From a virus (taxonomy: Duplodnaviria; Heunggongvirae; Uroviricota; Caudoviricetes): a stretch of DNA of 37,504 nucleotides. The position numbers and the translations under genes are program-made. A model generated the notes under the pieces. The model was not told where the DNA came from, did not search any database, and saw only the letters and a list, made by a program, of their open reading frames with translations. Location of the stretch: positions 1 through 37,504 of the IMG/VR virus record IMGVR_UViG_2660238580_000001; one strand, given 5' to 3'. Shown piece by piece: positions 8,291-8,779 of this stretch; the first letter of the stretch is position 1; the number at the start of each line of letters is the position of its first letter.

Positions 8291-8779
8291 ATGAGTCTGT
8301 TAAATGACGTTCAGAAATTCATTGAAGCCAATCCGGGGTGTACTTCCGGAGACATTGCGGATGCTTTTGCTGGTTACTCGCGGCAGCGCGTTCAGCAGTC
8401 AGCAAGCAAGTTACGTCAGAGTGGGCGTGTGGCTCACCGTTGTGAAGGGGATACACGCAGACATTTCCCGCGGCTGACTGAGATACCGCAGGAGCCGGAA
8501 CCGCAACCAGTTCGTGAATCCAGACCTGTGCGCAATTTCTATGTCGGCACTAACGATCCCCGGGTGATTTTGTGCCTGACCCGCCAGGCGGAAGAACTGG
8601 AGTCCAGGGGCTTATACCGTCGTGCTGCAACCGTGTGGATGGCGGCATTCCGTGAAAGCCACTCCCAGCCAGAACGAAACAATTTTCTGGTGCGTCGTGA
8701 GCGGTGCTTACGGAAAAGCAGCAAGCGCGCTGCATCGGGTGAAGAGTGGTATCTGTCAGGGAATTACGTGGGGGCTTAA
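8291..8779 (+). CDS. PerC-family-like transcriptional regulator
   Basis: ATG at 8291 (a GTG at 8285 is also possible); C-terminal LESRGLYRRAATVWMAAF ... RRERC matches my recollection of the PerC/Pch signature; N-terminal extension of unknown function. Confidence 0.5.
   Translation: MSLLNDVQKFIEANPGCTSGDIADAFAGYSRQRVQQSASKLRQSGRVAHRCEGDTRRHFPRLTEIPQEPEPQPVRESRPVRNFYVGTNDPRVILCLTRQAEELESRGLYRRAATVWMAAFRESHSQPERNNFLVRRERCLRKSSKRAASGEEWYLSGNYVGA

Follow-up and report, generated by a model that had tools for sequence, protein, structure and literature searches.

What does a PerC-family protein do when its gene lies in the early-right operon of a tailed phage, between the gene for a replication initiator and that for a DNA methyltransferase? 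The question is raised by a 37,504-nucleotide stretch of Caudoviricetes DNA (IMG/VR record IMGVR_UViG_2660238580_000001, positions 1 to 37,504; hereafter the window). An earlier note, made from the letters alone, had picked out an open reading frame at positions 8291-8779, assigned it to the early-right operon, read a PerC/Pch-like signature in the C-terminal half of its product, left the N-terminal part of roughly 90 residues as an unrecognised extension, and, since prophage-borne PerC homologues of pathogenic Escherichia coli activate host virulence regulons, proposed the protein as a candidate for phage-to-host regulatory cross-talk.

The reading frame is a real gene, conserved and under selection, and its assignment as a yfdN-type coding sequence draws on the ORF list and the sequence, on identity to YfdN of Escherichia coli K-12, on the protein family PHROG 1324 and on dN/dS. 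It runs on the plus strand from the ATG at 8291 to the TAA stop codon at 8777-8779 and encodes 162 amino acids, while a GTG at 8285 provides an alternative start that gives a 164-aa form, the one used by RefSeq. A GGGGG Shine-Dalgarno sequence for the ATG (8281..8285, plus strand) is visible in the sequence, where it falls within the final codons of the initiator gene upstream, whose TGA stop occupies 8286-8288, and at the other end the stop codon of yfdN overlaps the ATG of dam (8779-8781) in the string TAATG at 8777-8781. Because the stops and starts at both junctions are close or overlapping, yfdN is translationally coupled on both sides, to the initiator gene before it and to dam after it. 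A consensus scan found no promoter-like site directly upstream of yfdN, and since the gene has no such site of its own and is coupled inside the PR operon, its product should be expected mainly after induction rather than in the stable lysogen.

Among 50 distinct alleles from IMG/VR, dN/dS is 0.17 for the whole gene, with regional values of 0.11 in an N-terminal winged helix, 0.33 in a linker and 0.16 in the PerC domain, and the lowest value, 0.06, in a C-terminal tail; both domains are under purifying selection. A chance reading frame, or a gene in decay, might be suspected from the K-12 copy, which sits in a cryptic, truncated prophage, and from one Stx2a prophage in which the yfdN copy is interrupted by an insertion sequence. 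That suspicion is effectively refuted by the constraint on both domains, by conservation with synteny down to 24% identity and by the presence of the gene in plaque-forming phages, and we regard it as almost certainly wrong.

Judged by its sequence, the window gene is an orthologue of yfdN of E. coli K-12 (b2357, cryptic prophage CPS-53), to whose product its own is 95% identical over 164 aa. The PHROG 1324 profile covers the full length of the protein (residues 1-161, E=1e-77), and the RefSeq label reads “yfdN: PerC family transcriptional regulator.” The neighbours in K-12 are those of the window, with the O-like gene yfdO upstream and the dam gene yfdM downstream, although the K-12 context is truncated, with O and Dam both reduced to fragments, while in the window the module is intact; there is no other material difference. 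The members of PHROG 1324, Orf40 of phage SfV (annotated “unknown”; 93% identical to the window protein) and Sb43 of ST64B are likewise orthologous, and further cultured phages with the gene are SfII, SfIV, mEp460, Ayreon and phiSTEC1575-Stx2k, to which the homogeneous Stx2c phages of O157 and some Stx2a phages are to be added. The block initiator-yfdN-dam was matched in 2733 of 5426 complete E. coli genomes. Full-length homologues with both domains reach down to about 24% identity, and those of 24-50% identity that keep the two-domain architecture occur in Salmonella, Citrobacter, Klebsiella, Enterobacter, Kosakonia, Siccibacter, Lelliottia, Franconibacter and Pantoea; Hafnia is also among the genera with two-domain, full-length homologues. 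A scan of species-representative genomes with a narrower alignment yielded 11 loci.

The gene is thus real but already known, an ordinary prophage gene of a widely annotated family. It has been termed “the K12 unique PerC homologue” in a study where its deletion served as a strain background only (PMC5931665). In the searchable literature we found no experiments on any YfdN-type protein, and the sole phenotype found for one was a match in an over-expression screen for glycogen (PMC2853380). What the present analysis adds is modest, namely the two-domain anatomy of the protein, an analysis of the slot that its gene occupies and a negative test of the idea that it is an analogue of lambda P.

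The N-terminal extension that had been set aside as unrecognised proved recognisable as a winged helix. In an AlphaFold2 model built from 35 homologues (mean pLDDT 76), residues 1-60 (8291..8470, plus strand) form three helices followed by a beta-hairpin wing (helices 3-13, 19-25 and 31-44, strands 47-52 and 55-60; pLDDT about 80-84), and Foldseek superposed this domain on the winged helices of ArsR/SmtB, MarR, BlaI/MecI, DsrD and F-93 proteins at 1.5-2.5 Å over about 60 residues. A profile built from 29 diverse members of the family, searched against the PDB, matched MarR/EmrR (E=3e-4) and BlaI/MecI (E=4.5e-4 to 2e-3), the matches always falling on positions 3-64, while Pfam MarR_2 aligned with residues 10-57 at 24.0 bits, below its gathering cutoff of 27. 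The recognition helix (H3) and the wing carry a net positive charge in all 29 of the 29 family members. On the predicted fold, residues 1-60 are a winged helix-turn-helix of the MarR/BlaI/ArsR type, with a putative role in DNA binding. The core of helix-helix-helix-strand-strand is common to the MarR family, but the flanking N- and C-terminal helices that make up the dimer interface in MarR proteins are absent from YfdN, in which the domain of about 60 residues runs straight into a disordered linker. This flexible, Pro/Glu-rich linker (residues 61-89; 8471..8557, plus strand) has no secondary structure in the model and a pLDDT of 46-50, and both its length and its sequence vary across the family alignment, in keeping with its dN/dS.

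The PerC-like three-helix domain follows at residues 90-148 (8558..8734, plus strand), where Pfam, the modelled helices and the invariant columns of the family alignment place it. A search with Pfam PerC (PF06069) returned a match above the curated threshold (score 36.7 bits, gathering cutoff 22.6 bits; E=5e-9; residues 98-149 on model positions 5-56 of 90), which bears out the PerC/Pch-like signature that had been read in the C-terminal half; the two motifs quoted for it are located at residues 103-120 (LESRGLYRRAATVWMAAF) and 135-139 (RRERC). The invariant residues of the family alignment are L103, R111, A112 and C139. In the AlphaFold2 model the three helices span residues 90-106, 109-122 and 126-148 with a pLDDT of about 90, and the domain is strongly basic (pI 11.3). 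The NCBIfam model for the ANR family (NF033650) aligned with residues 96-142 over 47 of its 54 positions with a score of 23.4 bits (E=3.8e-5), which falls short of its cutoff of 32. For the PerC domain, whose biochemical mechanism is debated, sequence and profile searches returned no relative with a solved structure, and Foldseek against the PDB and BFVD gave winged-helix matches only. The protein ends in a conserved tail (8735..8776, plus strand), seen in the family alignment with the consensus W-Y/F-L-A/S-G-x-Y/F-V-G and marked by the very low dN/dS given above, which is absent from PchE.

With PerC, encoded on the EAF plasmid of EPEC, and PchA/B/C, encoded on prophages of EHEC, YfdN has in common the PerC core, a three-helix region resembling a helix-turn-helix, with its LE..G.YRRAA...RR..C signature. 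PerC and the Pch proteins are, however, single-domain proteins (the group 1 pch genes measure 315 bp and encode about 104 aa; PMC5931665), whereas YfdN, with its 162 aa, has, in addition, a winged helix at its N-terminus, a linker and a C-terminal tail of its own, and is encoded, unlike them, in an early lytic operon next to an initiator; the single-domain architecture of PerC and PchA-E is therefore not that of YfdN. Of the PchA/B/C genes, one source says no more than that they are located outside the LEE, in various regions acquired by horizontal transfer (PMC7369912). PchE (ECs_1588, in Sp7 of O157 Sakai) is 40% identical to YfdN over the PerC core (residues 94-145) and is encoded just downstream of the primase and SSB genes of a mobile element, but it has 90 aa and no winged helix. 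Its known phenotypes, namely repression of curli and csgD and effects on flagella, come from over-expression, and its effect on ler is minimal (PMC6265319, PMC7369912, PMC5931665). We considered PchE as a characterised orthologue of YfdN and rejected it, because it is a 90-aa single-domain protein in Sp7, a PICI-like element. The ANR family, whose members are small regulatory proteins (PMC10148876) and include Aar and Rnr, is described by a model of 54 positions and has no DNA-binding domain; its alignment with YfdN is the sub-cutoff one given above.

The surroundings of the gene agree with the early-right operon to which it had been assigned. The window has, in order, a gene for a cI-like repressor on the minus strand, a YmfL/CII-like gene (6433-7002), a 112-aa open reading frame, the O-like initiator gene (7347-8288) and yfdN, followed by dam (8779-9432), genes for a protein that consists of a LexA DNA-binding domain only, for RusA, for a KilA-N protein and for a DUF968 protein, and Q (11970-12320). 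Between Q and the lysis genes lies an AT-rich island of 2.2 kb (31-39% GC, 12.3-14.6 kb); no evidence linking this island to YfdN was found in the window. The initiator, of 313 aa and encoded on the plus strand, matches Pfam HTH_36 in its N-terminal part and PHROG 391, “replication initiation O-like,” at E=1e-134, and in its C-terminal domain it shares 39% identity with the O proteins of lambda, 434, H-19B and phi80. Its C-terminal end reads ...VDYSQIPAGFRG, a tail that is conserved in divergent initiators. Inside the initiator gene, a direct-repeat family (D1) and inverted repeats (I1-I3 and I6) mark an array of iterons (7635..7757, no strand assigned), with six copies of about TCAAAATCTGAC(G/C)C at a spacing of 15 bp, and this array is very probably the origin. 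The Dam protein encoded after yfdN, on the plus strand, is a phage N6-adenine DNA methyltransferase (Pfam PF05869, E=4e-45; TIGR01712, E=5e-76). Searches with Pfam, NCBIfam and PHROG profiles found no P, DnaC or DnaB gene in the window.

This arrangement is stable over a wide range of divergence. An initiator homologue with the same end junction precedes yfdN in 79 of 80 close IMG/VR loci, and the order of initiator gene, YfdN-like gene and DNA-modification gene is kept for homologues of 24-46% identity. The slot that the gene fills follows the replication genes and is that of ren in lambda; in other phages it holds other small proteins, among them DUF977 “Ren-like” proteins, a homologue of YfdN that consists of the winged helix only, and a 131-aa protein without a Pfam match. 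Such varied small occupants fit an accessory role rather than that of a core replication enzyme.

Three readings other than the one that we prefer were weighed against this anatomy and this setting. A PerC/Pch-like activator of host virulence regulons (ler/LEE or similar), selected for phage-to-host cross-talk, is suggested by the true PerC domain with its likeness to PchE, by the activation of LEE1 by PchA/B/C and PerC (PMC5931665, PMC4764244), by the altered curli, flagella and adhesion on over-expression of PchE (PMC6265319, PMC7369912) and by the presence of the gene in Stx2c and some Stx2a phages. Yet about half of the complete E. coli genomes have the gene too, among them K-12 and commensals without the LEE, and so do phages of Salmonella, Klebsiella and Pantoea; PchD and PchE, the homologues outside group 1, affect ler little or not at all (PMC5931665), and a PerC-like protein borne on a PICI, EcCIMP1_025, represses the LEE (PMC11773190). 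The position inside a lytic early operon with no promoter-like site of its own in the consensus scan, and the added winged helix, also set YfdN apart from PerC and Pch, and virulence cross-talk, which we consider improbable for this gene, is an extrapolation from PchA/B/C and PerC. Could YfdN instead be what its slot implies, a DNA-binding exclusion or anti-exclusion protein in the manner of Ren, or a controller of the DNA-modification gene downstream? Its position is that of lambda ren and of the DUF977 proteins, the N-terminal domains of the family weakly match PHROG 142, “Ren-like exclusion protein” (E=6e-7 to 4e-3), and the next gene nearly always concerns DNA modification (Dam, a D12 Dam, a C5 methylase, an MT-A70 protein, or a ParB-like protein with a transglycosylase). 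Lambda Ren and the DUF977 (YdaW-like) proteins are small proteins of the same slot, and the alignment of DUF977 falls on the winged-helix region of YfdN, but they have no PerC domain, and hhalign of the N-terminal domain against Ren and a DUF977 protein gave no significant similarity, with a probability below 3% in both cases. A role in anti-phage defence was rejected, there being no PADLOC match. As for the downstream gene, a methylase directly follows the initiator in phages without YfdN, and one locus with YfdN (L102) has no methylase after it, so that this adjacency looks like a general order of modules; we therefore hold a Ren-like or methylase-controlling role to be unlikely.

The third reading, in which YfdN would be a partner of the O-like initiator, either replacing a missing loader or adaptor of the lambda-P type or relieving inhibition by nucleoid proteins at the origin, calls on the setting described above. 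An initiator with a C-terminal domain this close to that of lambda O stands in a window without P, DnaC or DnaB, the overlapping junction of initiator and yfdN-like gene recurs not only in the close loci but in nearly all distant ones, and the near-invariant, coupled position directly after the initiator also fits a replication-linked role. Moreover, three unrelated types of initiator, the 313-aa type of the window, a 272-aa type represented by SfV orf39 (28% identical) and a 330-aa type whose N-terminus is DnaD-like, precede yfdN genes that are about 96% identical, and all of them end in the tail REDPYFKASYDNVDYSQIPAGFRG; distant initiators retain an end of the form ...IPxGFR(G/S), and the tail is missing from the O proteins that precede P (lambda, 434, GF-2 and Kp4864-1). 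The distribution of the tail nevertheless separates it from YfdN. In the Klebsiella phages Kp4874-4 and Kp4887-3, an initiator with the IPxGFRG tail is followed directly by dam, with no YfdN; in HannyBb the tail-bearing initiator is followed by a DUF977 “Ren-like” protein; and in Kp4886-1 an IstB/DnaC-like loader comes next, and after that the 131-aa protein mentioned above. Kp4864-1, conversely, has a complete pair of O and P, after which comes a 100-aa protein homologous to only the winged helix of YfdN. YfdN proteins that are 96% identical pair with initiators that are only 28% identical, which shows no co-variation, and in some loci the YfdN-like gene has no initiator beside it, as in a Kosakonia prophage, where it comes after RecT, and in a remnant, where it lies between cI and Q (loci L085 and L110). 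No loader family was matched in Pfam, NCBIfam or PHROG, and Foldseek gave winged-helix folds only; with lambda P and the DnaC-type loaders, YfdN shares nothing but the position after an O-type initiator gene, without similarity in sequence or fold. Measured against a loader, then, YfdN is neither obligatory with this type of initiator nor mutually exclusive with other loaders (Kp4874-4, Kp4887-3, HannyBb and Kp4886-1). The conserved tail belongs to the initiator, and the idea of YfdN as an analogue of lambda P was rejected as the main explanation on account of the same-tail initiators that lack YfdN or have a DnaC-like loader and of the winged-helix homologue that follows O and P. By the same comparisons YfdN is probably not a core replication protein, and the broader idea of a partnership with the initiator appears doubtful to us, on a par with the two readings above.

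The reading that we prefer, and to which we give about an even chance, is that YfdN may act in lytic growth as a DNA-targeted modulator of transcription or an anti-silencer. The simplest interpretation of a winged helix joined to a PerC module is that the former brings the latter, as an effector, to specific DNA. In this scheme, induction would lead to expression of YfdN from the early-right operon, the winged helix would tether it to specific DNA sites, and the PerC domain, as the effector, would displace or remodel silencing complexes of H-NS-type nucleoid proteins, or else contact another regulator; the net effect would be that, in the course of lytic development, transcription units of the phage, and incidentally those of the host, are switched on or off. 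Two precedents are the reason for giving the PerC domain this role, the relief by single-domain Pch proteins of silencing by H-NS, StpA and Hha at LEE1 (PMC4764244), which is the best documented activity of such relatives, and the protein-protein interactions through which ANR proteins contact H-NS and regulators of the AraC type (PMC5570504, PMC10148876).

A bolder extension would make the PerC module a portable effector of the whole PerC/ANR superfamily for the remodelling of H-NS-type nucleoid proteins, delivered in YfdN by the winged helix. In replicons of the SfV/mEp460 kind, which have an O-type initiator and no P, the site of action could then be the adjacent origin and early region, so that derepression would be coupled to the initiation of replication and to read-through into the AT-rich distal early/late region. 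We advance this extension as a speculation that is probably wrong.

The gene is among the commonest prophage genes of E. coli and is carried as well by Stx2c phages, by serotype-converting phages of Shigella and by Salmonella phages of the ST64B type. For this family, the two-domain anatomy corrects the tempting label of a “virulence activator” and at the same time offers a concrete and cheap experimental handle, and through it YfdN could shed light on the mechanism of the PerC and Pch proteins themselves.

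The replication initiator gene directly upstream of yfdN (window 7347-8288, 313 aa) encodes a protein whose C-terminal domain is lambda-O-like, with 39% identity, while no homologue of P, DnaC, or DnaB is encoded by the phage anywhere in the window, the whole early-right operon included. Within the linker-coding part of this gene lies an array of six tandem copies of about TCAAAATCTGAC(G/C)C at 15-bp spacing (window 7635-7757). The copies show internal dyad symmetry and also encode the repeated peptide DPSKSDASKSD. These putative iterons very probably constitute the phage origin, a position inside an O-type gene that matches that of the lambda origin.

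The initiator ends in a conserved tail (window 8214-8285, residues 290-313) with the consensus ...(V/I)D(Y/T)(S/T)x(I/V)PxGFR(G/S) followed by the stop codon. This short C-terminal segment is common to three otherwise unrelated initiator types and is kept in distant genera, being present in the initiators of the compared loci L012, L033, L084, L086-L088, L090, L099, L105-L111, and L113-L115, whereas lambda-type O proteins with P encoded directly downstream lack it. The tail resembles a short linear interaction motif, for which host DnaB/DnaC is a possible partner, and it is independent of YfdN. For the widespread SfV/mEp460-type replicon, the route of host-helicase recruitment appears to be undescribed.

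Further along the early-right region, a 108-aa protein (window 9429-9755) comprises a LexA DNA-binding domain only (PF01726, E=3e-19), with no S24 peptidase domain, and is kept at the same position in many related prophages; the protein is possibly a non-cleavable LexA mimic. An anti-repressor-like KilA-N domain protein (window 10161-10958) matched the PADLOC candidate system PDC-S22 weakly, with E=4.6e-6 across 38 residues, a match that probably reflects just the shared KilA-N domain. Between Q and the lysis genes, an AT-rich island on the minus strand (window 12345-14547, 31-39% GC) encodes a 343-aa homologue of the NA37/YejK-like nucleoid-associated protein (PF04245, E=1.5e-68), along with a protein of 394 aa that has neither a family match nor a PADLOC match. 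The equivalent slot of a Siccibacter prophage (L082/L083) is occupied by the Kiwa defense genes KwaA and KwaB.

Directly 3′ of YfdN-like genes, a DNA-modification enzyme is nearly always found (loci L082-L091, L099, L105-L111, and L113), its family varying among Dam (PF05869), D12 Dam (PF02086), C5 methylase (PF00145), and MT-A70 (PF05063). In Pantoea phage AH07, the YfdN-like gene is followed by genes for a ParB-like protein and a tRNA-guanine-transglycosylase-like protein.

The 90-aa, PerC-only PchE of O157 Sakai (ECs_1588; locus L001, 11772-12044) is located in Sp7, which carries an integrase, primase, and SSB, then capsid and terminase genes, and looks like a phage-inducible chromosomal island. 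There, as for yfdN in the window, the PerC-like gene directly follows replication genes. In the Stx2a prophage Stx2a_WGPS2 (AP012537.1, about 11260-11523), a yfdN homologue is annotated as IS-interrupted; if this prophage is still inducible, the interruption would speak for the gene being dispensable.
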